From Alphaproteobacteria bacterium (GTDB taxonomy: Bacteria > Pseudomonadota > Alphaproteobacteria > MPNO01): 64,000 nucleotides of DNA. The stretch is taken from positions 3,592,461 through 3,656,460 of the forward strand of contig OZ219866.1 in assembly GCA_964291675.2 (NCBI GenBank). The letters are read 5' to 3'. Positions 29,753-46,735 of the stretch are shown piece after piece. Position 1 is the stretch's first letter. Every line of letters starts with the position of its first letter. The notes under the pieces were generated by a model that saw nothing but the letters and a program-made list of their open reading frames with translations, was not told the DNA's origin and searched no databases. The translations under genes were made by a program, and so were the position numbers.

Positions 29753-29886
29753 GCCCGGATTGTTGTGAGGCACCGCCGGCGCGTCAACGTCCCCCCGGCC
29801 GTGTCACGCCTCGCCGAAGAAAGACCGGCGACTCGACCGGCACGATCGTGGTGCACCGCCATCCGGGTTCGACTGCATTGCTATCG

Positions 29887-29904
29887 ATGCTTAATTTTAA
29901 GCAT
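29887..29904. promoter_or_regulatory. Perfect inverted repeat ATGCTTAA-TT-TTAAGCAT, probable FitA operator
   Basis: AT-rich palindrome 15 nt upstream of the fitA-like start codon. Confidence 0.65.
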
Positions 29905-29919
29905 TCGGAGGAACCCGAC

Positions 29920-30162
29920 ATGGCAAGCATCACCATTCGCAACCTGGATGACGGGGTAAAGCGCCGCCTGCGCGTGCGCGCCGCGGAGAACGGCCGGTCG
30001 ATGGAGGAGGAGGCCCGCGACATCCTGCGCCGCGCCGTCGGCGAGCCGGTGCCGCCGAAGGATCTGGGCCGCGCCATCCACGCCCGCTTCGCCGCGCTCG
30101 GCGGGGTGGAGCTCGTGCTTCCCGAACGCGGGCCGATGCGACAGCCGCCCGCGTTCGGGTGA
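29920..30162 (+). CDS. FitA-like ribbon-helix-helix antitoxin
   Basis: MASITIRNLDD...RAAENGRSMEEEAR signature; GGAGG RBS. Confidence 0.9.
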   Translation: MASITIRNLDDGVKRRLRVRAAENGRSMEEEARDILRRAVGEPVPPKDLGRAIHARFAALGGVELVLPERGPMRQPPAFG

Positions 30163-30172
30163 GGCGACGATC

Positions 30173-30214
30173 GTGATCGTCGTGGACACGCAAATCGTAG
30201 AAAACGCTCAGTAA
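30173..30214 (+). pseudogene. Truncated VapC/FitB PIN toxin (only MIVVDT remains)
   Basis: GTG ATC GTC GTG GAC ACG matches a PIN-domain start directly after fitA; unrelated AT-richer sequence and a stop follow. Confidence 0.65.
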
Positions 30215-30617
30215 CGCCGTAAGTTACCGTTATACCGTAGTTTATTCGACCTTCCTGCTGGACTGATTCCAGCCCCGTAAGCATCCAGAGAGCGATCTGA
30301 CTCCGAAACCGCGCGCCGCGGTGAACGCGTATGCCGCGGGCGTGGAGGACTCCTCCCAATTCCGGAATTTCTCCGCCGCACTGACCTGGGCCGGGGCCTT
30401 CGCGGACGCGGCAGGCGGGCGCCGGACGGGCTGACGACGGCCTCCAGTCGCGCGGTGCCGGCGCTGTCGTGCGGGAGCGCGCGCATTGGTCCGGACGGCG
30501 GGAGGTCGCCGGATTTCTCCTTACCGTGCGCTTTGCAAACCCAGGCGGCGCCTCCTACGGTCGCTGCGTCGGTGCGCGGCAGCTCCGGCACATCCGGCAA
30601 TCGGACGGGGGGGTAGC

Positions 30618-30836
30618 ATGGGCAACGACGACAGAGGCTTTTTCGATACCCGGCGCGCTGCGATCTACCTCGGCCTCTCGCACCGTACGCTGGACGGTTA
30701 CCGCGTGAGCGGCGACGGGCCTGCTTTCCACCGCTTCGGGAACCGGGTGCGCTATTGCAGGTCGGATCTCGACGCGTGGGCTGCGAAGCGCAGGGCGACC
30801 ACCACGGCGGAGGCCGACAGGCTCAGCGCGGCATAA
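30618..30836 (+). CDS. Excisionase/AlpA-like helix-turn-helix protein
   Basis: TRRAAIYLGLSHRTL...GPAFHRFGNRVRY...DLDAW pattern. Confidence 0.85.
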   Translation: MGNDDRGFFDTRRAAIYLGLSHRTLDGYRVSGDGPAFHRFGNRVRYCRSDLDAWAAKRRATTTAEADRLSAA

Positions 30837-31162
30837 GCGCGGATGCGATCGTGGGCAATGTGTCCGCGTGACCGTTCGTGCGAATGATCTTAGGGCAGAA
30901 GTCGAGGCGATTCCTCGCTTTGGGCATCCGGCGTCCCTGTCTGGTTGCTTCGTATGTTCCCGGCCCCAAAATTCCCGACGTGAACGGGAGATTCGTGTAG
31001 ACACGGTCTTACGGCCAGAGTTCCCGGCAGTAATCGGCACCGAACTTCAAGCCGACTACCAGTGAATTCATCGCAAGCGGCCCCGTTCAATGCGCCGCGT
31101 GTTACGTCGTAGATTTGCACAAGGTAGCATAAGCATCTTTCCGACGGCTCTTGGGAGGTATC

Positions 31163-31882
31163 GTGGAGATCGAAGTACTCGAATGCGACTGGGGCGTGGC
31201 GCGGCGCGATGACATCCGGGTACTGTTGATGGACGTCGCATCGCACATCGTACGCGAGCTGCGAGATCCGCTCGACGAAACGATTCGCGTCATGAACCTG
31301 CCCGGGGAACCCCCGAGAGCCTTCTTCAGGAGACCGGGCGATACCGCCTACGAAGTGAACCTCACGGCGAAGGATCGGAAGTGGAGTCAATTCGCCTACC
31401 AGTTCGGGCACGAGTCTTGCCATGTCCTTTCGGGACACGACAAGTTGCGATGCGGTCCGAACAACTGGTTCCATGAGTCGCTCTGCGAGCTCTCCTCGTT
31501 CTTCGTGCTTCGCCGGATGGCAGAACGCTGGCCAACCGATCCGCCGTACTCCACGTGGGCAGGCTACTCTGCGTCGCTGGCCGACTACGCTGAGTCTACG
31601 GCGAGCAAGTACAGTGAAGCCGCGCCGACCGGCTCTTTTCACGCATGGTTGTTCGCGAACGAAATCCACATGCGAGATGACCCCTATCTTCGCGAACGGA
31701 ACGGCGTCGTGGCTCTCAGGCTTCTCCCGTTGTTCGAGGAGACCCCGCAAGGGTGGAACGCCGTAAGGCATCTTCCGGTGTCCACGGGGATGATCGGTGA
31801 ATACATCGAGGCGTGGAGGGCCGACGTGCAAGCTGTCGACCGCCTGTTCGTCGAACGTGTCGGCGAAGCCTTAGCAGACTAA
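31163..31882 (+). CDS. Hypothetical HEXXH zinc-metallopeptidase-like protein
   Basis: QFGHESCH followed by WFHESLCE; GGGAGG RBS before GTG 31163. Confidence 0.7.
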   Translation: MEIEVLECDWGVARRDDIRVLLMDVASHIVRELRDPLDETIRVMNLPGEPPRAFFRRPGDTAYEVNLTAKDRKWSQFAYQFGHESCHVLSGHDKLRCGPNNWFHESLCELSSFFVLRRMAERWPTDPPYSTWAGYSASLADYAESTASKYSEAAPTGSFHAWLFANEIHMRDDPYLRERNGVVALRLLPLFEETPQGWNAVRHLPVSTGMIGEYIEAWRADVQAVDRLFVERVGEALAD

Positions 31883-32282
31883 AAAGTTCCGGTCGTAGGA
31901 TCATGTTTGAGTGAATGGAACTCGAACACGTGCACCTCCAAGACGAGGAGATTGCCGCCGTCGAAGTCTGGGGAGCCGTCGCGTCCCCGGACTGTGAAAG
32001 GCCAATCGGGATTGTGCCGCACACCTCGAGGCCCGGGGGTGGCGACTCGTTCCTGAACTGCATTGACGGTTCGGCGGCTTCCGACTTCTGCCCGCCCCCC
32101 CGAGGGCTGAAGCTCAGCTCTTAGCGTGAATATCTACACGAATGTTGTCGTACCCGTACAAGTTGAAACGAGTCTTGGCAGAGTTTGATCCGATTGGCGA
32201 GGCGCGGCCTCGCGATGCCTGATTCTCGCGGCGGTCTGGTTCGGAAGGGGCGCGTTCTCTGGACACGGGCAAACCCGTCCAT

Positions 32283-33305
32283 CTACTGAGTGACCAAGGA
32301 GAACACGAACCGCACCTGCAGAAAGTCGTCGGGGCCAGTTTCCAGCAGCTCACCGCGTTCGGAGAGGGTCAGTTGAGCAATTCGTTCGTGCGCAAGCGTG
32401 TCGAACCCGAGCGGAAGGCGTGCATTCGGATTGTGGATGACGTAGAGGCCGTCAAGGAGATGTTCGGTGTATTCGGACTTGGGTGTTCTTCGGACGCGCG
32501 GTTCGATGGAGTCGGGATTGGGGTGGACGGTCGTGAACACGAGATGGTCGACTGGGTCTTCGGCGAGCGCACGGATCTTCCCCATACCGGCGATAGGACT
32601 GTAAATCACGGCGCTGACGTGAGCATAGCGGTCGTCGCAGAAGAAACCGACCGGCAGGTCAACCGAATCGGACTTTGGAACTGTTGACAACGGATAGCGG
32701 ATGACACGAGAGGACCGCGTCGCCATGCTCTGTTCTTCGTCAAAGTAGAGACCGAACAGGGCGGCGATGATCGGACGATTGTGCGCAAGCTGTGCGGCGG
32801 GTCGGTCGAAGGGCGCGAGCGCGATCACGAACGGTTTGTCCTTGACGTGGGCAAGCGTCGAGTGCCTATGGAGGTAGAGGTCGGATTTCGCGGTGAAGCG
32901 ACTGCTGATCCGCACGATGGAATCTCGGTTGAACTCGTTGAGATCGACCGGAATCTCCGGCGGGCCCTCGCCAAATGCCGGCGGGCCGCCGGCGGGGGGC
33001 TGGGCGACGGTAGCTTCGACACACAGGTCGACTCCACGCAGGCTGGCCACGAAGTCGGGTCGGGAGTGCTTGAACTCGACGCCGCCGCCGAGCTCTCGGA
33101 TGCAAGCGTGCACGTACAGCTCCCACATCGACGACTCGAAAGTGGTCTGGAACTCCTTGACGAACTTACCGTCGCGATCGACGAATCCTTGGCTCCAGTC
33201 GCGCAGCACGTCTCGCTCGGCGGCCTGTCGAGGGCCGCAAAGCCGACGGAAGATCGGATGCTGCTGCTGATCTTCGATCACTGGCGAAAACAGATCCACA
33301 GTCAC
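32283..33305 (-). CDS. Putative PD-(D/E)xK nuclease-fold protein
   Basis: FVKEFQTTFESSMWELY followed by RPDF...VEAT; lower GC than the host genes. Confidence 0.65.
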   Translation of the reverse strand: MTVDLFSPVIEDQQQHPIFRRLCGPRQAAERDVLRDWSQGFVDRDGKFVKEFQTTFESSMWELYVHACIRELGGGVEFKHSRPDFVASLRGVDLCVEATVAQPPAGGPPAFGEGPPEIPVDLNEFNRDSIVRISSRFTAKSDLYLHRHSTLAHVKDKPFVIALAPFDRPAAQLAHNRPIIAALFGLYFDEEQSMATRSSRVIRYPLSTVPKSDSVDLPVGFFCDDRYAHVSAVIYSPIAGMGKIRALAEDPVDHLVFTTVHPNPDSIEPRVRRTPKSEYTEHLLDGLYVIHNPNARLPLGFDTLAHERIAQLTLSERGELLETGPDDFLQVRFVFSLVTQ

Positions 33306-33615
33306 TAACCTCTCCGCTCTACCGTTGGCCTAGCACCATTGATCGACACAGGGCCTGTTTGCAAGCCACCAACCTGATTACGTAAAGGTGATACCTGTGG
33401 CGAACCGACAAGGTTACGGCTCCGCGACGGTGCTCGGCTGCGATGTTCTCGTCGGACCGGCACGTTGTGAGCTGCTCCGGGACGCAAACGTCGTGAGTGG
33501 GTCCGCGGGCGTCGGACAAAGTGCCATTCACAGGCGACAACCGAACACGAACTGAGTGGTTTAGCCATTTCCTCGAGACAGAGACGTAATCAGGCGATTT
33601 CGTTCTTCGCGATTT

Positions 33616-34269
33616 CTAGTGACCGCGGGCCATTGGCTTGTGTTGCGCGAGGGCCCATCCCCGGTTCTCTGGCCAAGCTACGCCCTGATAGGCCACATCC
33701 AGCTCCTTCGCCGTAGGCAAGAAGCACTTTTCGTCAACGGTTCGAATATCTCCATAGAGTTGCGAGAGAAAATTCCTGTCAACACAGCGAAACACTAGGG
33801 AGAGAGGTTCCGTTGCATTTTCGTGTTTGCATTTGCAGTCCTTGAGCCTGCTCAGGCATTTGGAGCATCTCATGAACTCACGAATTGATTTTAGTGCAGT
33901 TGTCGTTGGAGTATATAGAAGATATTGTCTGAAGGGCTGTACCTGTGCATGGCCAAATCCATTGCGATAGATCACTAACCGTTCAATAGCATCGTGTATT
34001 TTCGTATCCGCTTTCCATTTTGGCCAAGCGGACAAGAATTCGTTCTTGATTCTGCCGAAAGTAAGACGACCGATTTCGAGTCTTCGTCTCGCAAATTCCG
34101 GTGGATGATTGCTCGCTCCGTACGCCTTGTTGTAATTCGCCCGTAGAGCGCAGCTACCTTCGTGTAGGACCAACAAATCCCGCATTGTGCTTTCGACCCA
34201 ACACAGAAACATGAAGCACTCGCCTGCGGACTGCAGATGGTTATCCGTTTCTACCCGCTTAGATGGCAT
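33616..34269 (-). CDS. Hypothetical protein with HEPN-like RxxxxH motif and Cys cluster
   Basis: Low GC; helical N-terminus with VE; RNGFGH; CSKC...CKC. Confidence 0.6.
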   Translation of the reverse strand: MPSKRVETDNHLQSAGECFMFLCWVESTMRDLLVLHEGSCALRANYNKAYGASNHPPEFARRRLEIGRLTFGRIKNEFLSAWPKWKADTKIHDAIERLVIYRNGFGHAQVQPFRQYLLYTPTTTALKSIREFMRCSKCLSRLKDCKCKHENATEPLSLVFRCVDRNFLSQLYGDIRTVDEKCFLPTAKELDVAYQGVAWPENRGWALAQHKPMARGH

Positions 34270-34695
34270 GTCAAAGGGACTCCTAGTTGGAAAGGTTCTT
34301 CATGATCACGTGCCAAGCTCATCCGGATCACCACCCCGGAGGATGTTCGACGACGATCTCGTCGGAACCGCGCGGTTCCGGCACTTGAACGACGGTTGCC
34401 GTCGACACCGTAAGCGGGCGGATACCGGGTGGTGCATCAGCCGCGCGCACTGGCCCGCAGCGTCGTCGTCGGAGCAATCCTGCGTCTCGCCATATAAGGA
34501 TTCCCGCGCGCGAGGGAGCCGATGTCTGCCGCTGCTCTGCGCAGGCGTTCGCGCCGGTGGCGAATTTCAACGTTTCTCCCCAACTCCTCCCTGCCACAAA
34601 CGCCCCGGACCCCCGGGTGGGCCTGGCGATGGTGCGCATCTGCGGCATGGGCGTTGCCGGGGCGAGCGGCAAGACGCGGGCCGGTTGGGCCGACT

Positions 34696-34971
34696 CTAGC
34701 CGTTGACCGCGTCGCGGAGGGCCTTCGCCGCCTTGAACGAAGGCGCCTTCGAGGCCGCGATGTCGACGGGCTCTCCGGTTCGGGGATTGCGGGCCGTTCG
34801 CGCCGCCCGGATGCGGGTCGTGAATTTCCCGAACCCCGCGATGGTCACCGGCTCGTCGTTCGCCAGGGCGTCGGCGATGGTGGAGAACACGGCGGCGACC
34901 GTGCGCTCGGCGGAGGCCCTGGTCACCGACGTCTCGGCGGCAATACGCGCGGCGAGTTCGTTCCTGGTCAT
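34696..34971 (-). CDS. hup: HU-family DNA-binding protein
   Basis: GFGKF...RAARTARNPRTGE...PSFKAAKALRDAV. Confidence 0.93.
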   Translation of the reverse strand: MTRNELAARIAAETSVTRASAERTVAAVFSTIADALANDEPVTIAGFGKFTTRIRAARTARNPRTGEPVDIAASKAPSFKAAKALRDAVNG

Positions 34972-36042
34972 TTTCGATTCCCCTGGACTTCGATCTCAGT
35001 GTGGGACACGGCGCGAGCTCGGATCAAGCGCGTCGGCGGCGTGACCATGTCCCAACCGGCATTTGGAACGCTGCCGGACCGAACGGACCTGCTCAAGCTC
35101 GGCCGGGTCTCGCCCGGCAGCGGCGACGCTGGCGTGGGGCGCCACGGGAAGGCAGAGAAGACTCGCGCGTCGCCTGTGCGCCGGAAGCCGCCGAAAGAGG
35201 TCGCGTGCCGGCGAGAGCCCAATGGCCATGGCCGCTTGAATGGCGCAGCGGCCGCCTCACTTCGATCGGTAGAGAAGTTGCGGCCCGCCGAGCCTGATCG
35301 GGACGGCGGTATGTTCCAGAGCAGAAGTCACGTCATCGGCTGTCCCACCGTCGCCCGGACGCGAAGGACCGGAAAGGCGGCGGGGCCACCCACCCCCGAC
35401 GAGCGTTCGCTCGCAATCGCGCCGGACAGGTTGAGGAGCGCCGGGCGCACTGTACAGAAGGTGCGCCCGGCAGAGTCCGCGCCCATCCCCACGGAAGTGT
35501 ATCTGGCGCCGGCGGGAAGGCCGGCCGTACGGTCCGCCCCTCAGGCGACATGGTGCGCCACGGCGCCGGGAAAGATCGAACCGCGAAGCGGCCGACGGCG
35601 GCCGGGCGCATGCGGCACGGGCATGAATTTGGTGCGCAAAGGCATTTTCTTCCCGCTTGCGATGGCGGTAGTGGAATCGGTCCGGCACGCGGTGACGGAA
35701 GGGTCCGCCGCGGGAGGCGGGACCATGAGGGTAGAGCGAACGAGCGAGACGCGGTCGTACGGGGCCGCCCGGCCGCCTCCGGACCTGCGGCGGCGGGGTC
35801 CCGCGAGCGGTTCTCCGGCCCGCGCGGAGGCGGCGGCAAGTGCGCCCCGGGCCCGGGGACGGCCCCGTGAGACGGCCTGGCGCGGAGCGCCGGGATGGGG
35901 CACGGAGCGGCGCGCGCGGGGCGGTGAAGGGACCGTCGGCACCCGGTGCGTACCGGACGGCCTTCCGGGGCCGGATAGTCCAGCAATACCAAGAAGTTAC
36001 AGCGAAGGACAGGCGTCGCGGGGCGGGTCTGCCGGGGGCCGT

Positions 36043-36076
36043 TTGGCTCGCGATAACTATTGTTATCAGGAGCCAA
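36043..36076. other. lox-like recombination site A: TTGGCTCGCGATAAC-TATT-GTTATCAGGAGCCAA
   Basis: 15-bp arms with 2 mismatches; arm core identical to the site at 37368. Confidence 0.75.
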
Positions 36077-36360
36077 CCCGCCAATTCCACCGTTTCCGAC
36101 GGGCGGCCCCGAGGCCGCCCGGTCACGCGGCGGCAATCCTAGTTACCCTCGAAATCAATTGCAACCTGCTGGATTGTCAACGGGTTATCCGCGTCGGAGC
36201 GCCAGCGCGGCGCCATCCGGGCCCTCGGCGCGTGGACACCGGCCCAGCGCCAAGCGGCGAATTTGGCTCGCGATAACACTTTGTGGAAAACCGCCCCCTT
36301 GCACCGGTTCGGGACGGATCGACGCCAGCGGGGCAGGCCCCATCATAAGCCATCGCGCAC

Positions 36361-37332
36361 TCACGCACGACGCTGAAGACGCGCGAGCTGCGCCGCCCCG
36401 CTGCGCCGCGCCAGGAGCCGCTCGCCGTAGCGGTGCACCATCGCCGTCGTCTTCCAGCGCCCCGCGTCCAGGATGGCCGGCATCCCGATGCCTTCGGCCA
36501 CCATGTCCTGCGCCGCGCCCACCCGGGTGCTGTGCCCGGAGATGCGCGCGACAACGTCGCCCGGCAGCCCCGCGCGCTCGGCCATCGTCTTGAAGATGCG
36601 CGGCACCTGGCTCGCGTCGAGCCGCTCGCCGAGCGCGCCGCGGTTGAGCGAGCGGAACACCCTCCCCCCGGTCACACCGCTCCGCTCGCACCATGCGCGC
36701 ACCAGCGCCACACTGTCGGGGGCGAGGTACAGGGTTGCGCCGCACCCCTCCGCGTCGGTCTTTGAGCGGCGCACCAGCACCGTCCCCGAGCCGTCCGCAT
36801 CCACCACGATATCAGACACTTGCAGCGCGACGAGCTCGCCCCGGCGCAGCAGCGTGTCGTAGGCGACGGCGAGCAGGGCGCGGTTGCGCGCGTCGATGAG
36901 CGTGTCGCCGGTGGCGCCCATCAGGCGCTCGAGCAGCGCCCAGTTGAGCCCCTCGGCCTGCGCCTGGCGCCGCCCCTTGCGCCGGTGCATGCGCGCGAGC
37001 GCGCGGCGCACCGGCTCGCTTCGCGTCGTCTTCTCGAACCCCACCGCGCGGTGCGCGGCCGCGATGCTCGCCACGTAGCGGCGCACCGTCGCGGGCGCGC
37101 GCTCCTTCGCCATGGCGTCGACGAAGGCCGCGACCGTCTTCGGCGCCGCCGGCAGCGCGGTCAGTCCATGCGCCCCGCACCAGTCCTCGTAGATGGCGAG
37201 GTCCGAGCGCATCGCCCGCTCGGTGTTGTCGGCGAGCGCCCCGCGCGCGGACGCCGCGCAAGCGGTCCGCGGGCTCCGCTCGACGCAGCTTGCGCTCGTC
37301 TGCGCCGGCCGGTTCAGCGGTTCGACAAGCAT
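36361..37332 (-). CDS. Cre-like tyrosine recombinase
   Basis: SAM-like N-terminal domain; catalytic LLRRGE, RSKTD, SGHSTRVG, GRWK and HRY (Trp in place of the second His, as in Cre); GGAGG RBS at 37340-37344. Confidence 0.9.
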   Translation of the reverse strand: MLVEPLNRPAQTSASCVERSPRTACAASARGALADNTERAMRSDLAIYEDWCGAHGLTALPAAPKTVAAFVDAMAKERAPATVRRYVASIAAAHRAVGFEKTTRSEPVRRALARMHRRKGRRQAQAEGLNWALLERLMGATGDTLIDARNRALLAVAYDTLLRRGELVALQVSDIVVDADGSGTVLVRRSKTDAEGCGATLYLAPDSVALVRAWCERSGVTGGRVFRSLNRGALGERLDASQVPRIFKTMAERAGLPGDVVARISGHSTRVGAAQDMVAEGIGMPAILDAGRWKTTAMVHRYGERLLARRSGAAQLARLQRRA

Positions 37333-37367
37333 CGATAAGCCTCCAGGTCCGTGAAACACGGCCCGGA

Positions 37368-37405
37368 GATCGGCTCGCGATAACAATAGTTATCGCGAGC
37401 CGATC
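37368..37405. other. lox-like recombination site C: GATCGGCTCGCGATAAC-AATA-GTTATCGCGAGCCGATC
   Basis: Perfect 17-bp inverted arms just upstream of the recombinase gene. Confidence 0.8.
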
Positions 37406-37690
37406 GACAGCGTCAGGGGGGTGGTCGATGGGCAATCCCGGGGACGGATACGGGTCTTCCTTCCTGCGGTTGGCAGGCAGACCCGGTGCACTCCGCGGCG
37501 GCGTCTCCACAGGCGCGGGTGCGCCGGCGAGGGATGCCGCATGGCGACGTCGAGGGCGTCCATCTCCGGGCATCCATCCGAACCATAGGGCCAGGTCTTT
37601 CCCGGCGCGTCCCCAGTCCTGGGGAGGCGCGCGGGCGCGCGGCTCGGCTGCCGCCTGCGGCTTCGTCGGGGAAATCTTTGTGCGAACGCG

Positions 37691-40600
37691 ATGACGGGGG
37701 GTTCAGTGAGCGTATTCCGGAACGCATTCAATCGCGGCGGTTGCCGGTCGGCGGTCGCGGCGGCATCGGTGAGGTTCGGCTTCGGCGACGGGCCGGTAAC
37801 GGGCGCGGAGGCGCCGGCGGAGGACCGGGCGGCCGCTCCCGAATTCTCCCCGGGCGGGGCCGAGGCGCGCGCGGACCGGCGGGCGCGGAACGCCGGGCCG
37901 GAGTCCGGGGCCGGAGCGGGGCGTCGCCAACGAGGACCGCGCCGGTCGGCCGGGGCATTCGCGGGGCGGGCGAACGCGGGCCGTCGTTCTTCCGACGACG
38001 GGCCGGCCCGCCCGAGGGCGACGCCGGCCGGTGCGCTGGCCACGGCCCGCCGCGCCGGGACGGCCGCGCTGCTGCTGGCCTGTCTCGCGCTGCCGCTCGC
38101 GGCGCTCTTCTCCACGCCGGCCCACGCGCAGACCGAGAAGACGCGGGTCACCAACCACAGCGGGGCCAACGCGACCTCGAACGGCACCGTCGGCGGGCCG
38201 AGCGGGAGCCAGTGGGGCCAAGCGCAGCAGTTCACAACCGGCGCCGGCAGCCACACCCTCGGCTCGGTGGTCGCGCATCTGAGGTCTGTCGGCTCGCAGG
38301 CGGCTGTGAAGGTGAGCATCTACACCTCCACGTCCGGCAACAAGCCCGACACCAGCCTCTACGTGCTGAACAATCCGACGACGATCGCCGCGACGTCGGA
38401 CAACACCTTCACCGCGCCGAACAATGCGACGCTGGCAGCGAACACGAAGTACTTCGTGGTGTTCGAGAACACGGCCATGGGCAGCGGGAGCAGCTACACC
38501 TACAGCGTGCGGCGGACGACCTGGAACTCCGCGACCGCGAATACCGGGTGGAGCATCGCCGACACATCCAGGAGTCGGACCAGTGAGACCGATAACTGGA
38601 CCTCAACCATCAACGATTCCATCAAGATCGCCGTCAAGACGTCCCACAACGCCGCGACGGGCCAGCCGGCGATTTCCGGCACGGCGCAGGTCGGAAACAC
38701 GCTGACGGCCAACAAGGGCACCATCGCGGACTCCGACGGGCTGCCCTCGTTCCCGGGCGGCTTCACCTTCCAGTGGGTGCGCGGCGGCACCAACATCTCG
38801 GGGGCGACGTCGCGCGAATACACGCTGACGGACGACGACCAGGGCAACACCCTCAAGGTGAGGGTCTCCTTTACCGACAATGAGGGGTTTTCCGAGGGAC
38901 CGCTCGAGAGCGTCGCGACGTCGTCGGTCGCGGCGATGCCGGCGAACGGCTGCACGCCGGACGACCTGCGGCTCGTCGGCGGCGACAACGACCGCGAGGG
39001 CGAGGTGGAGATCTGCCACAACAACCAGTGGCGGAACGTGTGCGACGACGATTGGGAGAAGGTGGACGCCAACGTCGCGTGCAAGCAGCTCGGCTACACC
39101 CAGGGCGCCCGGCGGGCCACGATACTCTCCGAGTTCACTACTTTGATCTCCGTCCAATTCTGGCTTGACGATGTCGCGTGCACCGGCAGCGAGACGAAGC
39201 TGGCGGAGTGCGAGCATGCGGGCTGGGGCGTGAACAACTGCACCCACGCCGAACGGGCCGGCGTGGTCTGCAAGGCGAATGCCAACGTCGCCGCCACGGG
39301 CCAGCCGGCGATATCCGGCACGGCCGTCACCGGCGAGGACCTGACGGCGTCGACCGACGGGATCTCGGACGACAACGGCAACACCAAGGCGGAGGACGGC
39401 GATACCGGCTTCGCCTACACCTACCAGTGGTTCCGGGTCGATTCCGACGGCACCTCGAACAAGACCCAGATCACGGGCGAGACGGCATCGACCTACACCC
39501 TGGTCGCGGCCGACGTGGGCAAGAAGGTCATCGTGGAGGTGAGCTTCACCGACGACGAGAGCAACGCCGAGGGGCCGCTCGCGAGCGACGCCTATCCCGC
39601 CGGGACCGGCACGGTCGAGTCGGCCGACTCGACGCCGCCGGAGGTGGACTCGGCGACGGTGGACGGCACGTCGCTGGCGATCACCTTCAACGAGGACCTC
39701 GCCGCCGCGGCCAACCTCGCGAACGATGCCTTCGAGGTGAAGCGGACGCCGCCGGGCGAGGCCGAGGAGACGGTGACGCTCACCGGCTCGCCGGCGATCA
39801 GCGGCATGACCGTGACGCTGACGCTGGATGCCGCGGTGATTGCGGGCGACGCGGTGACGGTGGGCTACACCAAGCCGACCTCGGGCACCGACAACGTGCT
39901 CGAGGACGCGGCGGGCAACGAGGTGGCGGATTTCACGGAGACGGTCACGAACGACACCGAGGTCGTCAACAACCCCGCGACGGGTGTGGCCATCGACGGC
40001 CCGGCGCAGGTGGGCATGACGCTGACGGCGGACACCTCCGGCATCGAGGACGCCGACGGTCTGACCGGCGCGACGTTCGAATACCAGTGGTTCAGCGGCG
40101 GCACCGAAATCCCGGGCGAGACCGGGTCCACCTACACGGTGCGGCCCGCGGACGTCCTCAAGCGGATCAAGCTGCGGGTGACGTTCAAGGACGACGCCGG
40201 CAACGACGAGGCGCCGGAGAGCCCCGCCATAGCGCCGGCCGTGCCGGCGGCGGCCGACCACTGCGACTCCCTGACCGTCTGGTGCGCCACGCTGACCGCG
40301 GGTGCAGACGATGCAATTCTTGACGACGCTGGCAGACTACTAGACGCTGACGAAACGGGTTACCTGCGCGCTACGCGTTCCGGGCGTGGCAGGGCGCCTG
40401 CGGTTCCGCGGCGCATCCGGCGAAGACTCTTGGCGGACGTCATCGAACCATTCGAGGAGCAGAAGGCAGAACGTGGCGAGTCTGACTGGAACGATGTCGC
40501 TATCGAAGCCGCAGCTACGCATAGCCATGGCTACGATGTGGTCGTGGTCGATGAAGCCCAGGACCTCTCAGCAAACCAAGTAAGAACCATCCTCGCGCAC

Positions 40601-41290
40601 TTGAGGGAAGACCACTCGACGACCTTCATCATGGATGCCGTGCAGCGAATCTACCCGCAGGGCTTCCAATGGAGAGAAGTGGGCATCGATATGCGTCCGC
40701 AAATGGTGTTCGCCCTAACTCGCAACCATCGCAATACAGGGGAGATCGCCAGGTTTGCGGCGTCATTAGTACGGGACCTCCCGCTAGAGGAGGATGGTTT
40801 GGTGCCTGACGCAAACGCGTGCGAGCGTTCGGGTCCACTTCCTCGTGTGGTGGTAGGAAGATACGCTGCTCAGGTCAACTACATGCTGAACGAGGTTCAA
40901 GAAGCTATAGAATCCGAGGAAACGATCGCTATCCTCCACCCCAAGGGGTGGTTCGATTACGCAAGGGGGACGCTTGACCGACGCGGCATCGACTACTGTG
41001 AGCTGACACGACAGCGCGAATGGCCGACCGGGCCGGAGCTGGTCGCGTTGTCAACGTTTCATTCCGCAAAAGGTCTCGAATTCGATCATGTGCTTATGCC
41101 TGGCCTAAATCAGGAGGTCACCCCTCATGGTGACGAAGACGGAGACGGCACGCTCGACTCTCTTCGCCGCTTGGTGGCTATGGGTATCGGGCGCGCCAGA
41201 CGCTCCGTCATGGTCGGTTGCAAACCTGGAGAAGAATCGACGTTGATTGAGATGTTTGATCCCGAAACCTACGAACTCGTTCGGGTTTGA
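37691..41290 (+). CDS. Chimeric ORF: secreted Ig-like/SRCR/SwmB-like adhesin (to ~40310) fused in frame to the C-terminal part of a UvrD-like SF1 helicase
   Basis: Signal peptide ...PAHAQ; SRCR LRLVGG...VCDDDW...CTGSE; codon/GC shift at ~40305-40365; then VDEAQD, RNHRN and STFHSAKGLEFD with no Walker A. Confidence 0.8.
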   Translation: MTGGSVSVFRNAFNRGGCRSAVAAASVRFGFGDGPVTGAEAPAEDRAAAPEFSPGGAEARADRRARNAGPESGAGAGRRQRGPRRSAGAFAGRANAGRRSSDDGPARPRATPAGALATARRAGTAALLLACLALPLAALFSTPAHAQTEKTRVTNHSGANATSNGTVGGPSGSQWGQAQQFTTGAGSHTLGSVVAHLRSVGSQAAVKVSIYTSTSGNKPDTSLYVLNNPTTIAATSDNTFTAPNNATLAANTKYFVVFENTAMGSGSSYTYSVRRTTWNSATANTGWSIADTSRSRTSETDNWTSTINDSIKIAVKTSHNAATGQPAISGTAQVGNTLTANKGTIADSDGLPSFPGGFTFQWVRGGTNISGATSREYTLTDDDQGNTLKVRVSFTDNEGFSEGPLESVATSSVAAMPANGCTPDDLRLVGGDNDREGEVEICHNNQWRNVCDDDWEKVDANVACKQLGYTQGARRATILSEFTTLISVQFWLDDVACTGSETKLAECEHAGWGVNNCTHAERAGVVCKANANVAATGQPAISGTAVTGEDLTASTDGISDDNGNTKAEDGDTGFAYTYQWFRVDSDGTSNKTQITGETASTYTLVAADVGKKVIVEVSFTDDESNAEGPLASDAYPAGTGTVESADSTPPEVDSATVDGTSLAITFNEDLAAAANLANDAFEVKRTPPGEAEETVTLTGSPAISGMTVTLTLDAAVIAGDAVTVGYTKPTSGTDNVLEDAAGNEVADFTETVTNDTEVVNNPATGVAIDGPAQVGMTLTADTSGIEDADGLTGATFEYQWFSGGTEIPGETGSTYTVRPADVLKRIKLRVTFKDDAGNDEAPESPAIAPAVPAAADHCDSLTVWCATLTAGADDAILDDAGRLLDADETGYLRATRSGRGRAPAVPRRIRRRLLADVIEPFEEQKAERGESDWNDVAIEAAATHSHGYDVVVVDEAQDLSANQVRTILAHLREDHSTTFIMDAVQRIYPQGFQWREVGIDMRPQMVFALTRNHRNTGEIARFAASLVRDLPLEEDGLVPDANACERSGPLPRVVVGRYAAQVNYMLNEVQEAIESEETIAILHPKGWFDYARGTLDRRGIDYCELTRQREWPTGPELVALSTFHSAKGLEFDHVLMPGLNQEVTPHGDEDGDGTLDSLRRLVAMGIGRARRSVMVGCKPGEESTLIEMFDPETYELVRV

Positions 41291-41295
41291 TCCCC

Positions 41296-41988
41296 ATGTC
41301 GAGGGACAACTTCATTCCGGCTCGTCCAAGAAGATCGGACGAAATCGAACTTCTGCCGACATGTCCGGAAGTCCTCGCGGCGGCGGAAGAGCGGGAAGTG
41401 CGGAACGTGATGCATTTCACAACGATGACCGGCGCGGTCGGGGTTTTGGCCGCTGGCGCCGTCAAGAGTCGAGAGCGGCTACCCGAAGACAAGTATCTTG
41501 AATACGTCTATCAACCGAACGCAGCATACCGCAAGGACACTGCCTGGCTGGACTATGTGAATCTCTCCGTGGAGCGCATCAACGCCTGGATGTTCGATGC
41601 ATCTCAGCGTTGGCATGCGGCCGAGGGAAATCCTTGGGTTTTGCTGTCGTTTTGCCCGGAGATATTGGCGCATCCGGGGGTGGTGTTTACGACGACAAAC
41701 AACATTTATCCAGCGTGTACTCGCGCCGAAGGCTTACCGGGATTCGAGCGGATGTTCGCAGAGACGGTTGTTGGTCGTTACAACAGCGTTCATGGCCGTG
41801 ATGGAAAGCATTCCGCATGGCCCACCGACCGACAGGCGGAAGTTCTGTATCCAGGCGAGCTGTCGTGCGAGTATCTGCAACGGATTGATGCCCAAACAGA
41901 AGATGCTGCTGACGGGATTCATGGCATGTTGAGTGGTCTCCAATTGGATGAGATTACCGTTCGTCATGCACCGGAGGCGTTCGAATGA
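41296..41988 (+). CDS. darT: DarT-family (DUF4433) DNA ADP-ribosyltransferase, DarT1-like
   Basis: MHFTT, DYVNLS and PTDRQAEVL (catalytic Glu); alternative TTG start at 41287 overlaps the helicase stop. Confidence 0.8.
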   Translation: MSRDNFIPARPRRSDEIELLPTCPEVLAAAEEREVRNVMHFTTMTGAVGVLAAGAVKSRERLPEDKYLEYVYQPNAAYRKDTAWLDYVNLSVERINAWMFDASQRWHAAEGNPWVLLSFCPEILAHPGVVFTTTNNIYPACTRAEGLPGFERMFAETVVGRYNSVHGRDGKHSAWPTDRQAEVLYPGELSCEYLQRIDAQTEDAADGIHGMLSGLQLDEITVRHAPEAFE

Positions 41989-43721
41989 CTGTTTCGGAAT
42001 CGCTTCGTGGGGCTCCGCCACCGGATACCGGGGAGGTTCCACAGCCTAGCAATGTGGCTTCAACTCAGTTTGCAGCGCGTGCCGCGATGACCCACCGTTC
42101 CGCTCTGTGGGCGGCTTACGGGGACGCATTGGGCTGGATCAGTGAACTGACCGATTCGAGAGGACTGAAGCGAAGGACGGGAGGTGAGCCGCTTTGCCGT
42201 CCCATCGCATGGAATAGGAGGATCGGTGGGCGGGGGGGAATCACCGTAACGTTGCCGGTGGGTTGCTACTCAGATGATTCCCAGTTGCGTCTCGCCACCG
42301 GCCGGGCGATTGGGCCTAGTGGTTTCGATGTTGAAGCGTTCGCAAAGGTCGAACTCCCAGTCTGGCTAAGCTATGGGCTCGGGGGAGGCAAATCTACGAG
42401 CGCTGCTGCGGGGAACCTGTCTAGACAGACAGTCCCTTGGTTCGCCAACACGTTCAAGGGATGGAGTAACTCCGGCGGAAACGGCGCGGCGATGCGCATC
42501 CAACCCCACGTCTGGGCGAGCTCGGATTTGGACGACGCTCGCACGTACCTGCCCGACGTTGTGCGCAACTCGATCTGTAGCCATTCCCATCCCATCGGAT
42601 TGCTCGGGTCGGTGGTTCATGCACTGACGCTCGCACAAACCATGTCCACCGGCCATCAACCATCGGTCAGTGACGTAATGGAGGCTGTCAAGAAAGCGGC
42701 TGAACTCCCCGAGTTGATGAGGAGCGATACCGAGGTAGGAAGCTATTGGCGCGGAGCTTTTGAACGGGAGTCAGGAAGTTTCGATGACGCATGGAGGCGT
42801 GCAATCGAAGAATGCAGGGAAGCGGTGTCAGTTGCTGGAGCAAGCCCTTCGAATGCGAATGGAGCTGAACGCTATGGCGCTTTGATCCAGGGCCTTAGAC
42901 TTCGCGAGCCAGCGCGGAGAGGCAGCGGAATGCTGACTGCAGTCGCGGCGGTCGGTTTGTTGTGGTGCGAAGCTGAACCGGAAAAGGCCATGCGTATCGC
43001 AGCAAACGAACTAGGGACAGATACTGATACGATTGCGTCGATGGCCGGCGCGATCGCCGGTGCGGTCGCTGAAGCCGAGCCGCAAGTGCAGGTGCTGGAT
43101 GCGGAGCTATTCCGTTCTGAGGCTAATCGGTTGGTAAGGGTTGCCTTTGGCGAACGTCCGGTTGGCCATCGTTATCCCGATCTGCTGCGCTGGTCGGCGC
43201 CGTCCAGACGCGCCGATACTTTGGTGCGCACGAAAGACGAGGGTCTCTACGTTCGGGGTCTAGGCCTCGCTAAAACTGCGAGCGATCCGATAACGTCGCC
43301 GAGTGGCGATTTCCAATGGCAGTGGTTGACGCTTGAATCTGGTCAGACCTTGCTAATCAAGCGCAGGGCTGACCTGATGCTCATCGAAGATGAAATTGAG
43401 ACATCGCCGGCGCAACGGTCTCTGCATCCGATGCCGCCCAGGGTCGATGCCGGCCAGGAGCCATCTGCGGTGGAGCGTCGAGCAACCGATTCGGATTGTC
43501 CGGTGGAAGCGCCTCCCGAGGAAGCAAGGGATGCTACCTCAAGAACTGAGTCGTCCTTGGATCTGCAGGTCGCGCTCCACTATATCGAGGAGCACAAGGA
43601 TGATGACAGAGCTGTCGGGGCCGCCTTGCGGCGCGTCGTCAACAAGGGGACTCCAGGCCAAATTGCAGCATTCACCTCCGCCTTGATCGATCATCTGGGA
43701 AAGACTGAGAGGAGGAGGTGA
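41985..43721 (+). CDS. ADP-ribosylglycohydrolase (ARH/DraG family) with C-terminal extension
   Basis: AYGDALG, YSDDSQL, GNGAAMR, SHSHP and GTDTDTIASMAGAIAGA; ATGA overlap with darT. Confidence 0.88.
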   Translation: MTVSESLRGAPPPDTGEVPQPSNVASTQFAARAAMTHRSALWAAYGDALGWISELTDSRGLKRRTGGEPLCRPIAWNRRIGGRGGITVTLPVGCYSDDSQLRLATGRAIGPSGFDVEAFAKVELPVWLSYGLGGGKSTSAAAGNLSRQTVPWFANTFKGWSNSGGNGAAMRIQPHVWASSDLDDARTYLPDVVRNSICSHSHPIGLLGSVVHALTLAQTMSTGHQPSVSDVMEAVKKAAELPELMRSDTEVGSYWRGAFERESGSFDDAWRRAIEECREAVSVAGASPSNANGAERYGALIQGLRLREPARRGSGMLTAVAAVGLLWCEAEPEKAMRIAANELGTDTDTIASMAGAIAGAVAEAEPQVQVLDAELFRSEANRLVRVAFGERPVGHRYPDLLRWSAPSRRADTLVRTKDEGLYVRGLGLAKTASDPITSPSGDFQWQWLTLESGQTLLIKRRADLMLIEDEIETSPAQRSLHPMPPRVDAGQEPSAVERRATDSDCPVEAPPEEARDATSRTESSLDLQVALHYIEEHKDDDRAVGAALRRVVNKGTPGQIAAFTSALIDHLGKTERRR

Positions 43722-44035
43722 TGCGGCGGCCGAAGCATCGAGTATGGGCTAGTGGTTATAGCGCCCGAGCGGGGATCTTTGCTGGTCGCGGGTCCTCGGG
43801 CGACTGCGCGAACGCATCGGTGAGTGCGTCCGCGCCGCGGGACTGCTCTTGCTCGCAGAGAGTCCCTGGCTTTCTTGGTTTCCCTTCGCGTTCTTGACTT
43901 GCCCTACCCGCACCCGAAGTCGCACCGTTACCGTTCGGCTGGGGCGCTTGCGCAGGTGCGGCTGTTCGCGGAGATCGTGCGCGATATCGCGCCCTTCAAC
44001 AAGAAAACATTCATACTTACTATTGACCTTCGAAC

Positions 44036-45355
44036 ATGACCGTCAAAGGCGACGACACAAATACAATGACAAAACAGAAACAAGACTTTTTGGCTGAACA
44101 ACAAGAACGATATGAATGGTTGCGTCGTGTCACTGACGAAGCAATTGCTGCGCGCACGAAGGAGGTAGAATTCCACGGCCTAGAGGAAGAGTTGCGGAAT
44201 TTACAGAAAGCAATTCTGGATAGTTACAATCACACAAAACCAATAAAACATCCTCGCGACAAAGGCGATCATCGCGAAGAGATATTGAGACATTTTCTCA
44301 CCAAACACGGCCTCCTGCCCAACAGTGTCAGTATACCATCTGTCAGCACACGAGTAGTTTCCCCATCAGGCCACATCAGTCCGGAGCTTGATATTCTTTT
44401 TGTCAACGCGAACGATTCAATAGTTCTTAAGAGATATGAAAACACGCTTGAATACTATCCCGTAGAATCTGTGCTTGGTACGATACAAGTGAAGTCGAAA
44501 CTAACGAAAAAGGAGTTGGCATCTGGGCTAAAGCATATACAGGCTTTCAAGAACATAAGACCAATCCGCTCGCTAAGGCGTCAAATGGGCGGCTTCACAA
44601 TGGAGGCAGGTCTCTACCGGAGGTTTGGCATTCTATTCGCATACGAGCGTGCCTTACGGTGGGAGAAAATGGTTGAGGTCATTCGTGAGCATTTAGCTGA
44701 GTGCCCAAACAGCCTTTGGCCAAACATGATAGTGATTCTGGACGCGGGTTATTTTCTTATTGGTGACAAGTCGCGTTATGCGTGGAATCAGAGAACTCTT
44801 GAGGACATATCAAATCCAGAAATTCATGGTTCTCCGGACTATTCTGGGCACTGTCTACAGCAATTCTATTCTTATCTGATTGCTCTCGTGAAGGAAGCAA
44901 ATAGTGGTTGGCCGGATACGAACGATTACTTGCGTATGCCGATTGCTGTGGGGGAACACTCTCTCGAATTTGCGCATGGCGGGTTTTCTGAATTCGCCAA
45001 ATGTCCTCAACATGGAAACTACTTGAAAAAGATTAAGGTGGAGAATATCAAGATAATACTAGATAAGACCAAAAATAGTGAACCAATTAATTGGATTAAG
45101 GCGTTGGACCTGGCAGCGGGCAAACCCGGCACGGACTCTGAACGTTATGCGAAACAACCTGGCGACGTTATTGTGTATGATCCGGATAGTCTTGGTCTAG
45201 AGAATGTATTGTTGAGCGCGGAGGGGTTCATTACGCACGAACAGGTTATCATTGACGGCCGTCAATACTGGCTTCCTTGGCACTACGTTGTTGCTCACGA
45301 GCTTATTGATCCGTGTCCGCAGTGCCGAGATGGTGCGAAAGATGCGAAGTCATAG
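44036..45355 (+). CDS. NucC-like (DUF6602) endonuclease domain protein with C-terminal extension
   Basis: HPRDKGDHRE...SPELDILF...YPVESVLGTIQVKSKL; low GC; CPQH and CPQC pairs; start may be 44066. Confidence 0.7.
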   Translation: MTVKGDDTNTMTKQKQDFLAEQQERYEWLRRVTDEAIAARTKEVEFHGLEEELRNLQKAILDSYNHTKPIKHPRDKGDHREEILRHFLTKHGLLPNSVSIPSVSTRVVSPSGHISPELDILFVNANDSIVLKRYENTLEYYPVESVLGTIQVKSKLTKKELASGLKHIQAFKNIRPIRSLRRQMGGFTMEAGLYRRFGILFAYERALRWEKMVEVIREHLAECPNSLWPNMIVILDAGYFLIGDKSRYAWNQRTLEDISNPEIHGSPDYSGHCLQQFYSYLIALVKEANSGWPDTNDYLRMPIAVGEHSLEFAHGGFSEFAKCPQHGNYLKKIKVENIKIILDKTKNSEPINWIKALDLAAGKPGTDSERYAKQPGDVIVYDPDSLGLENVLLSAEGFITHEQVIIDGRQYWLPWHYVVAHELIDPCPQCRDGAKDAKS

Positions 45356-45532
45356 CATGTGGATCCCCGGTTACGGCATGTCCAAAAGTCAGTTCTGTTG
45401 CCGCTGTAGCCCTGCGTAAAGGTAATGGGGTTGCGAGGGAACAGCTAGACGAGGAAATGGGGGCTTTTTTCACAAGGTACAGGGTCTCGCACAGGCATAT
45501 GGATGGGATTTGCCGCAAGAGAGTGGTTTAGA

Positions 45533-46735
45533 TCACATGGCGGCGGCAACCTCTGGCGGCGTGTCCATGTCGGCTTCGAGACTGTCGGAAATCCGAACGG
45601 CAGCGACCTTGACCGAGTGCTGGCCAAGGTGTGCATAGCGCGCGGTCGTCTGCACCTTAGTGTGACCGAGCAGCTTCCCGATCATCGGGAGACCCTCCCC
45701 GAGGGCGAGCAATCGCGAGGCGAAGCTGTGACGCAAATCATGCAGGCGGACGTCTTCGAGCCCCGCCTCCCTGCGGACGAGCTGCCACGACGCGTTCAGC
45801 GTCCGCAGGCGGGAGCCGCGCACGCGGCCGGGAAACACCCACGGGTTGTCGGGCCGGCGCGGCAGCGCGATCAGGACCTGCTTCGCCGCGGGCGAGAGCG
45901 GCACGGCCCGCGCCCCGGTCTTCGCATCCCGGAGCCGCAACTCGTCGTGTTCGAGGTCGACATGCTCCCATTTCAGGGTCACGATCTCGTTGCGTCGGCA
46001 GCCGGTCAGCATCAGCAGGCGCAGCGCCCCGGCGGCGCTCGTTGAGACCGTGCCCGCGGCTTCGAGCTCGGCGAGCACGCGGCCCAACCGGTCGAACTCC
46101 TGCTCCGACAGGAAGCGCTCGCGCCCGCGCGTGGGGTATTTCTGGATGAACCGGCAGGGATTGCCGCCGGCCGGCGCCGCGCCCGACTTGGCGGCGGTGT
46201 AGAACAGTCGGGAAAGCAGCGAGACCGCCTGGTTCGCCATGGTCGGCGTCGCGCGCATCCGGTAGTGTAGCGCCGCAATATGGTCGGGCGTGACCTCGCT
46301 CAGGCGCAGGGCCCCGAACTTCGGCAGCAGGAACCTGTCCAGGATGTAGCGGCATCCCCGCTGCGTCGTCGGCTTGCAGCGCACGGCGACATGTTCGGTC
46401 ATGTAGCGCTCGGCCATCTCGGCGATCGTCGGCCCGTTGGCCGAGGGGGAATCGGCGCCCGGGCGGCTCGGCGTCTCGCCCGCCTTCAGGCTGGCAAGCA
46501 GCCGTCCCGCCTCGCGCCGCGCCCGCTCGGGCGTCCACACTCCGTGGCGGCCGATGGTGACGCGGCGTGTTTTCCCCCGGGCGCGGGTCTGCACCATGTA
46601 GACCTTCGAGCCCGAGGGATGGACGCGCACCCCGAAGCCGGTGAGGTCGCGGTCCCAGAACAGGGCTTCGCGCTCGGCGACCGGCAGGGCGTCCACCGCG
46701 CGCCGGGAAAGGACGAGCTTGTTCGGGCTTGGCAT
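45533..46735 (-). CDS. Tyrosine integrase with arm-binding (DUF4102-type) domain
   Basis: WDRDLTGFGVRV; TGCRRNE, DAKTG, HDLRH, LLGH and TARY. Confidence 0.92.
   Translation of the reverse strand: MPSPNKLVLSRRAVDALPVAEREALFWDRDLTGFGVRVHPSGSKVYMVQTRARGKTRRVTIGRHGVWTPERARREAGRLLASLKAGETPSRPGADSPSANGPTIAEMAERYMTEHVAVRCKPTTQRGCRYILDRFLLPKFGALRLSEVTPDHIAALHYRMRATPTMANQAVSLLSRLFYTAAKSGAAPAGGNPCRFIQKYPTRGRERFLSEQEFDRLGRVLAELEAAGTVSTSAAGALRLLMLTGCRRNEIVTLKWEHVDLEHDELRLRDAKTGARAVPLSPAAKQVLIALPRRPDNPWVFPGRVRGSRLRTLNASWQLVRREAGLEDVRLHDLRHSFASRLLALGEGLPMIGKLLGHTKVQTTARYAHLGQHSVKVAAVRISDSLEADMDTPPEVAAAM

Follow-up and report, generated by a model that had tools for sequence, protein, structure and literature searches.

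A predicted Cre-type recombinase gene between two inverted lox-like sites: a candidate self-inverting promoter switch beside a surface-protein gene

The locus described here lies in a 64,000-nucleotide (nt) stretch of an alphaproteobacterial genome of 4.8 Mb (contig OZ219866.1). This whole stretch is called the window, and all coordinates given without a locus name are window positions. The locus is a compact cassette in which the gene of a predicted Cre-type tyrosine recombinase stands between two lox-like palindromes, site C at the head of the segment, in front of the gene, and site A at its tail, behind the gene, with a single additional arm (half-site B) in between. The elements of the segment are as follows.

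36041-36078, no strand assigned: site A, the tail-end ('D') lox-like site, with outer arm 36041-36057, central TATT 36058-36061 and inner arm 36062-36078
36262-36277, plus strand: half-site B, an accessory arm without a partner, TTTGGCTCGCGATAAC, within the segment about 200 nt from site A
37332-36361, minus strand: Cre-type tyrosine recombinase gene, 323 amino acids (aa), ATG at 37332-37330, stop codon at 36363-36361
37368-37405, no strand assigned: site C, the head-end ('U') lox-like site, with perfect 17-nt arms and central AATA at 37385-37388

The product of the enclosed gene, which is preceded by a ribosome-binding site (GGAGG at 37344-37340), has Phage_integrase (PF00589) as its only Pfam match, with an E-value of 2e-18 and 67 bits against a cutoff of 27. 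Its best relatives of solved structure are Cre and Tre, an engineered derivative of Cre, both at E ~1e-21 over residues 30-308, which comprise the N-terminal and the catalytic domain; XerD comes next, at 2e-6. In addition, residues R163/R164, K191, H267, R270, W293 and Y302 align to the catalytic set of Cre and are invariant in all five sequences of alignment A1. In excerpts from a survey of Cre-type systems this set is numbered R173, K201, H289, R292, W315 and Y324 (PMC10250229). Judged by these matches, the enclosed gene is that of a Cre-type tyrosine recombinase, as an earlier sequence-only reading of the stretch had proposed. Two other identities were tried and rejected. A XerC/XerD dimer-resolution enzyme is contradicted by the scores of TIGR02224 (47.6 bits, cutoff 335) and TIGR02225 (43.1 bits, cutoff 330), and also by the sites, which are paired, lie on both sides of the gene and recur at multiple loci in place of one dif site at the terminus, while a serine invertase of the Hin/Gin/Cin/Pin kind is contradicted by the sole Pfam match, a domain of the tyrosine type.

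Site A reads GTTTGGCTCGCGATAAC TATT GTTATCAGGAGCCAACC and site C reads GATCGGCTCGCGATAAC AATA GTTATCGCGAGCCGATC, the inner arm of site A departing from the perfect arm at two positions. Each central tetranucleotide is the reverse complement of the other, so that the two sites are inverted relative to one another. With arms of 15 bp, the spacers become 8 bp long, ACTATTGT in site A and ACAATAGT in site C, and the arms of site C end in GATA. The survey mentioned above, in the parts drawn on here, reports a G-A-T-A motif adjoining the spacer of active Cre-type sites, and GATA stands next to the 8-bp spacer in the window sites as well (PMC10250229). Site C has the make-up of a Cre-type target, namely two inverted arms of 13-15 bp around an 8-bp spacer near the gene, its inner edge lying about 35 nt from the recombinase ATG. 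Between them, the two sites bracket one open reading frame (ORF) and a tail of 285 nt, the distance between their centres being 1.33 kb. The exact 13-mer GGCTCGCGATAAC occurs four times in the window, and these occurrences, together with the two-mismatch arm of site A, all fall at the cassette locus. In the whole 4.8-Mb genome the exact 13-mer is found in the same four places only, and eight further matches, each with one mismatch, are scattered elsewhere. When up to two mismatches were allowed within the window, five matches were counted against 2.98 expected and 20 of 100 shuffles reached five, so that this count is not above chance. The letters and the genome-wide search bear out the earlier description of two inverted palindromes with a shared arm and TATT/AATA spacers, which bracket nothing but the recombinase gene and some 280 bp with a third half-site.

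The same layout is repeated in the same genome, where a paralogue on another contig encodes a recombinase 66% identical to that of the window. Its arms differ (GATTACGCGCGATAAC type), and again a full site precedes the start codon by about 35 nt, a half-site follows the stop codon at about 120 nt and a second full site at about 300 nt, the spacers TGTC (upstream) and GACA (downstream) being reverse complements; the neighbouring gene, which diverges from it, encodes a Calx-beta protein (E 7.7e-29). Beyond this genome, a scan of one genome per species returned 364 stretches encoding relatives, of which the best 79 loci (59-81% identical) were compared. These, together with the window, its paralogue and three congeners, make up the 84 loci of the site survey. 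A protein search yielded at least 3041 clusters at E <= 1e-20 among 8000 scored candidates, all with generic names only, and a scan of metagenome contigs with a single protein returned one locus, L094, in which no sites were detected. According to record titles, the relatives come from Alpha- and Gammaproteobacteria, Vicinamibacterales (Acidobacteriota), Longimicrobiales/Palauibacter (Gemmatimonadota) and Chloroflexi, and several titles name sponge-derived bins.

Homologues were checked for the same flanking sites, as the sequence-only reading had called for. Both full sites were detected in 64 of the 84 loci, and the upstream and downstream centres are reverse complements in all of these but L018, that is, in 63. 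Thirteen spacer pairs are represented among the 64, TGTA/TACA in 30, TGTC/GACA in 15, TGTT/AACA in 7 and TATT/AATA in 3, with nine singletons. The asymmetries of the arms are mirrored too, since the whole 38-mers match better in inverted orientation in 59/64 loci and better in direct orientation in 3/64. As far as these sequences go, the inverted two-site layout is a trait of the family. The head-end site keeps a constant position, about 54 nt before the start codon. The segments fall into two size classes, with centre-to-centre distances of 1058-1115 bp in the short type (Gemmatimonadota and Acidobacteriota) and 1276-1446 bp in the long type (Proteobacteria). In the other long-type loci the stop codon is followed at 259-402 nt by the tail-end site. 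About 39 of 42 long-type loci also have the internal half-site, which keeps one orientation and lies some 200 nt inward of the tail-end site; it was seen in none of the 22 short-type loci. Two loci with singleton spacer pairs, L028 (TATA) and L073 (TGCA), have self-complementary centres at both sites, which removes the orientation cue, so that excision as well as inversion could occur there.

That strands are exchanged at such sites is supported by a trace, left in evolution, of crossover at the centres. L041 and L042, which come from a single assembly and have a centre-to-centre distance of 1874 bp, share an inner 1.9 kb that is 96.7% identical and colinear, and their flanks are exchanged and inverted, with identities of 94.6% and 80.9%. 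When the arms of the outer head-end and the tail-end site of L041 were exchanged in silico, as by a crossover at the centre, the two sites of L042 were predicted at 34/38 and 36/38 positions, and the adjoining 21-nt flanks match as well. Both loci have two tandem head-end sites 47 nt apart (L041 2689-2774 and L042 2799-2884), and the outer of the two, not the gene-adjacent one, takes part in the inferred inversion. In L042 a gene of 657 aa without Pfam match stands behind the outward promoter elements described below, and in L041 this gene is found at the end that lacks them. Opposite orientations were seen only between paralogues and between species. In a further pair, a subtilase gene is found on one side of the segment in L028 and on the other in L092; the second flank differs, so that this is not a simple inversion.

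These data bear directly on one alternative, namely that no programmed rearrangement takes place. Site C would then act as an operator for autoregulation or, like the sites of Cre-type systems on plasmids, as a lone resolution site, and site A and half-site B would be relics or additional binding sites. This alternative is suggested by the position of site C, which overlaps the sole place possible for a recombinase promoter, by the nearly uniform orientation across assemblies, and by the outgroup relatives on plasmids, which have an upstream site only, at an equal distance from the start codon. The closest cultured or plasmid relatives are tyrosine recombinases of Methylobacterium/Methylorubrum, about 50% identical (e.g. 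WP_012778790.1 on p1METDI). At the two plasmid loci inspected, one related GCGATAAC...TATCGC site lies about 55 nt before the start codon, as the head-end site does, no second copy of the arms was found within 3 kb, and the neighbours are toxin-antitoxin, TIR and regulator genes, not adhesins. Relatives on viral contigs are only 26-31% identical, and a single upstream site was detected in 7 of 23 such loci and none in the remaining 16. The single site of the outgroup plasmid relatives indicates that the second, inverted site is a derived trait of the cassette family. Nevertheless, an operator would account neither for a second site with a compensating spacer in 63/64 loci nor for whole-site mirror symmetry in 59/64; a relic would not keep perfect arms across phyla; and the arms of L041 and L042 could not have been swapped at the centres unless strands were exchanged at the sites. 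We therefore regard the absence of any programmed rearrangement as highly improbable.

At the tail end of the segment, promoter-like elements directed outward accompany the site. In the window these are the following, the third being the hexamer on which the sequence-only reading had based its outward promoter.

36084-36056, minus strand: promoter-like element P2, outward through site A, with -35 TTGGCG at 36084-36079, a 17-nt spacer that is the inner arm, and -10 AATAGT at 36061-36056
36164-36136, minus strand: promoter-like element P1, in the tail and directed toward site A, with TTGCAA at 36164-36159, 17 nt, and TAGGAT at 36141-36136
36180-36175, minus strand: TTGACA, present in the window and unconserved in the seven nearest loci

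The -10 hexamer of P2 is made of the four central nucleotides of site A and two of its outer arm, and the hexamer pair of P1 is aligned in 7/8 sequences of alignment A2, which holds near relatives. Across the family, the outward -35 lies within one mismatch of TTGACA at 42 of 69 tail-end sites, is exact in 26 and has at most two mismatches in 62; at the control positions, no -35 within one mismatch was found (head-end outward 0/75, head-end inward 0/75, tail-end inward 0/69). This -35 abuts the inner arm of the tail-end site, and its spacing to the hexamer at the crossover is mostly 17 nt, or 18 nt in the short type, the -10 hexamers there being TACAGT, TACAAT, GACAGC, AATAGT and similar ones. 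Since the spacer centres are reverse complements, the same -10 hexamer would be re-formed at the other end after inversion. The outward geometry is conserved across the family, the window copy scoring 8/12, below the threshold of a standard scan. Of the earlier proposal, a candidate outward promoter on the minus strand at the tail end survives; the particular TTGACA does not.

At the head end, the segment faces a gene that is transcribed away from it.

37691-41290, plus strand: divergent large ORF of a surface protein, the candidate target of the switch, 1199 aa, with choice-of-anchor R, SRCR, Ig-like, SWM-repeat and ZirU-like matches

In 28 of the 79 loci the nearest large ORF on the head side encodes an adhesin or eukaryotic-like repeat protein, in every case on the opposite strand, with Calx-beta, fibronectin-III (fn3), cadherin, cadherin-like, leucine-rich (LRR), SWM and He_PIG repeats; on the tail side, such a neighbour was found in 1 of 75 loci. 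Other head-side neighbours include TbpB-like lobes in two loci and a subtilase in one, and most of the rest are without Pfam match or are probably mis-called ORFs. In 24 of 27 loci an in-frame start lies 19-161 nt outside the site, mostly an ATG after a purine-rich ribosome-binding site, and in L027, L069 and L090 the first in-frame start lies 310-333 nt outside it. In seven Gemmatimonadota loci the start is 44-45 nt outside the site, which leaves no room for a promoter of the gene's own. On the inner side of the head-end site, about 35 nt, ribosome-binding site included, precede the recombinase ATG, too short a stretch for a promoter within the segment at this end, as the switch reading expects.

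The best explanation of this arrangement, and in our judgement a fairly probable one, is a self-inverting promoter switch of the Hin kind built on a Cre-type enzyme. The recombinase would bind the 15-17-bp arms of the two lox-like sites and exchange strands within the central 6-8 bp and, since the two centres are reverse complements, the product would be inversion and not excision. The tail of the segment would carry outward promoter elements of the sigma-70 type, with the -35 just inside the tail-end site and the -10 formed by the crossover region, so that the promoter would be rebuilt at whichever end the tail lands. In the assembled orientation it would read left across site A, first over about 1 kb of non-coding DNA and then into an HU-like gene, and this would be the OFF state, the SRCR/choice-of-anchor gene facing the promoterless head of the segment; inversion would bring the promoter in front of the surface-protein gene and turn it ON. 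Half-site B, as an accessory arm, would probably shape the synapse or bias the direction of the reaction. Three parts of this scheme are inferred: that the window copy is presumably active, that its hexamers would make a working promoter, and that the surface-protein gene would depend on it. The earlier suggestion that a flip would aim a promoter at the adhesin has found comparative support in the inverted sites, the half-site, the tail-end promoter elements, the divergent adhesin and the L041/L042 pair, and has lost the specific TTGACA from which it had started.

Several observations weigh against this explanation. Orientation is lopsided: 28 loci have the adhesin gene next to the promoterless end, as against about 1-4 in which it adjoins the promoter end. 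Such a pattern fits a strongly OFF-biased switch and a mostly static arrangement equally well. A promoter and terminator scan of 35000-38000 at a threshold of 9/12 returned no site, P1 and P2 of the window reaching 8/12 each, and the inner arm of site A has its two mismatches. Site C is followed by a leader of 285 nt before the SRCR ORF begins, and this could accommodate a separate promoter. No promoter for the recombinase was identified within the segment, which bears on how the enzyme would be expressed after inversion. In 20 of the 84 loci one or both sites were not detectable, single arms only being seen in some of these, and the spread across phyla and the habitat are known from record titles. 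Regarding read-level data, the Logan contigs of four runs are short, none bridges a site, and there were no strand-switch joints among them, so that they carry no information on orientation. In run X1 the depth was 500-700 over the recombinase gene versus 20-30 in the flanks, an excess that means only that many related copies exist in that sample, and contigs of run X13, an RNA library, cover 37388-37578, which cannot show a transcript start.

On the other side of site A, two features follow in the direction of the outward promoter elements.

34972-36040, minus strand: stretch of about 1.07 kb beyond site A without a credible ORF
34699-34971, minus strand: gene of an HU/IHF-type DNA-binding protein (Bac_DNA_binding, E 1.6e-32), co-directional with the outward promoter elements

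Within 34972-36040, no ORF with the codon-position G+C pattern and no Rfam family were found, the 584-aa ORF on its plus strand has no Pfam match, and a LysR remnant sought in this gap was not found. Homologues of the HU-type gene occur on the same side and strand in L015, L017, L020 and L029. The region of the gene (34404-34996) has copies of 72-89% identity elsewhere in the same genome and in congeners, and in G019 these include places near the second recombinase paralogue of that genome. In 13 of 75 loci, all of the short type, the tail-side neighbour is a GAF-PAS-HisKA-HATPase-receiver-OmpR hybrid. The tail-side 'ORFs' of Proteobacterial loci were set aside as probably not coding as called, their frames shifting and Pfam matches being absent. 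Proteobacterial loci (L044, L049, L051, L054, L055, L057, L059, L077, L079, L082 and others) share a conserved hairpin rich in G+C (stem gaacgccgcgcacgg, loop CTGT), located some 200 nt past the tail-end site, and its surroundings are conserved at the nucleotide level without a stable reading frame. Rfam gave no match in the window or in six related loci, the hairpin included.

These neighbours raise the question of whether the sites serve another exchange. The sites might recombine between cassettes and thereby shuffle flanks, that is, surface-protein genes and regulators, or inversion might toggle a regulator on the tail side (hybrid kinase-regulator, LysR or HU) or the recombinase itself. 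Many copies with one spacer in one genome would suit shuffling, the TGTA/TACA pair of 30/64 loci including at least five on one contig, and among L028, L030 and L092 the exchange of flanks is not a simple inversion. Recombination between loci would, however, produce large chromosomal inversions or deletions, which are costly, and the pairing of sites kept within 1.1-1.4 kb, together with L041/L042, points to intramolecular inversion as the usual reaction. Toggling on the tail side would agree with the conserved promoter, which as assembled points at the tail-side genes and not at the adhesin gene, and with the presence there of the hybrid in 13/75 loci and of LysR and/or HU in the window's sub-clade; yet what the family conserves is the type of the head-side adhesin, not the genes on the tail side. 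On balance, exchange for shuffling or for the control of the tail side or of the recombinase is judged unlikely.

The setting of the locus suggests mobility. Synteny with all 11 congeners ends at about 29790-30190, which places the cassette in an accessory island (29790-46000) absent from them. Relatives of the recombinase are patchy, being present in 3 of 77 other genomes of the window's order, all three of the same genus (3/11); the 66 genomes from outside the genus have none. In several genomes 3-5 copies of the cassette are found, and relatives 72-78% identical are found in other classes and phyla, as compared with 66% for the paralogue in the same genome. The cassette might accordingly be mainly mobile, a minimal tyrosine-recombinase 'insertion cassette' whose lox-like sites are terminal inverted repeats for movement or integration, the adhesin neighbourhood reflecting target preference or hitch-hiking. 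In favour of this, L064 and L065 share a unit of 1224 bp, 98.6% identical, which begins at the outer edge of the head-end site and has unrelated flanks, and the symmetric spacers of two loci (TATA, TGCA) would permit excision as well as inversion. When compared with an insertion sequence, inverted terminal sites are present. Nevertheless, no consistent target-site duplication was found among the 64 two-site loci (at most 8/64 for 4-mers and 2/64 for 5-mers), and the inverted asymmetric spacers of 61/64 loci predict inversion, not excision. The shared sequence often overruns the tail-end site into the regulator gene, as in L040 versus L047 over 3.7 kb, and the 1224-bp unit itself overruns it by about 88 bp; such sequence shared beyond the tail-end site means that the two sites are not the ends of the duplicated unit. 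Moreover, mobility leaves unexplained why the -35 is conserved at just one of the ends and why the divergent adhesin gene is fixed. Mobility as the main role is thus given little weight, though it and switching are not mutually exclusive.

Further features of the island and of the relatives may be added. The last ~300 residues of the surface-protein ORF (40400-41290) match UvrD-helicase and UvrD_C fragments in frame with the adhesin-type domains, and may be a helicase-remnant fusion or a run-on ORF. Directly after this ORF, at 41287-43721, the gene of a DarT-like single-stranded-DNA ADP-ribosyltransferase (E 2e-24) overlaps by 4 nt an ADP-ribosylglycohydrolase gene (E 2e-31), a pair which looks like a DarTG-like toxin-antitoxin or defence system. 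Positions 33600-34400 have 43-56% G+C compared with about 70% around them. In L041, L046, L068, L083 and L090 the cassette lies within a few kb of a contig end, and one sequence of 4.5 kb appears on two contigs, as L064 and as L068; both observations might reflect the behaviour of assemblers at a repeated or invertible segment.

If the switch reading holds, the consequences reach beyond this genome. Eukaryotic-like proteins are leading candidates for the means by which sponge symbionts escape feeding or rejection by the host, and we know of essentially nothing on how these proteins are regulated there; full-text literature searches found no paper on phase variation or invertons in sponge symbionts or on the cassette. 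A conserved switch beside such genes in several phyla would make their regulation directly testable, and long-read metagenomes could supply the ratio of orientations for a comparison between hosts, tissues or life stages. A broader proposal, which we put forward tentatively as falling just short of probable, is that the family is an undescribed, horizontally spreading 'plug-in' module for phase variation in symbionts of at least four phyla, many of them sponge-derived by record titles. In such a module, a self-flipping Cre-type recombinase and a promoter whose -10 is the crossover site would turn giant eukaryotic-like surface proteins (SRCR, cadherin, fibronectin-III, LRR, Calx-beta) on and off and thereby alter the appearance of the symbionts to the host, and the 13 spacer pairs and several arm types would form a natural panel of mutually orthogonal lox-like sites. 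The family appears to offer many natural pairs of the Cre/lox kind, differing in arms and spacers, to which the accessory arm may confer directionality, and the pair in the window may be usable as a tool, as the sequence-only reading had suggested.

With regard to known systems, the cassette belongs with Cre/loxP of phage P1, Dre/rox, Vika/vox and the YR series as presented in excerpts of the survey, sharing with them the enzyme family, fold and catalytic residues, and also the two inverted arms, the 8-bp spacer, the GATA beside the spacer and the position of the sites next to the recombinase gene (PMC10250229). Its recombinase has low identity to Cre itself and is known here from its sequence. 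What is the cassette's own, compared with those systems, is the bracketing of the gene by two inverted sites, the accessory half-site, the outward promoter elements, the chromosomal location and the vicinity of adhesin genes. To our knowledge, Cre-type systems have one site beside the gene and serve the resolution of plasmids or prophages.

Regarding invertible promoters, fimS (with FimB/FimE) and the invertons of the PhaseFinder type have their recombinase genes outside a segment of about 0.2-0.4 kb, with inverted repeats of 9-30 bp, and a bias to OFF is common among them. The cassette resembles them in that a tyrosine recombinase would invert a short promoter-bearing segment beside adhesin or surface genes, and differs from them in its full palindromic lox-like sites and in the subfamily of its tyrosine recombinase. 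Hin/hix of Salmonella, a serine invertase with a Fis-dependent enhancer, governs flagellar phase variation. The layout proposed for the cassette is like that of Hin/hix, with the recombinase gene inside the segment, then an outward promoter just inside the far site, and inversion that would couple or uncouple a neighbouring surface-protein gene. Unlike Hin/hix, it has a Cre-type tyrosine recombinase, lox-like sites, an accessory arm and a -10 that would be formed by the crossover region. If true, a Hin-like design would have been reinvented with a Cre-type enzyme, its promoter split across the crossover site.

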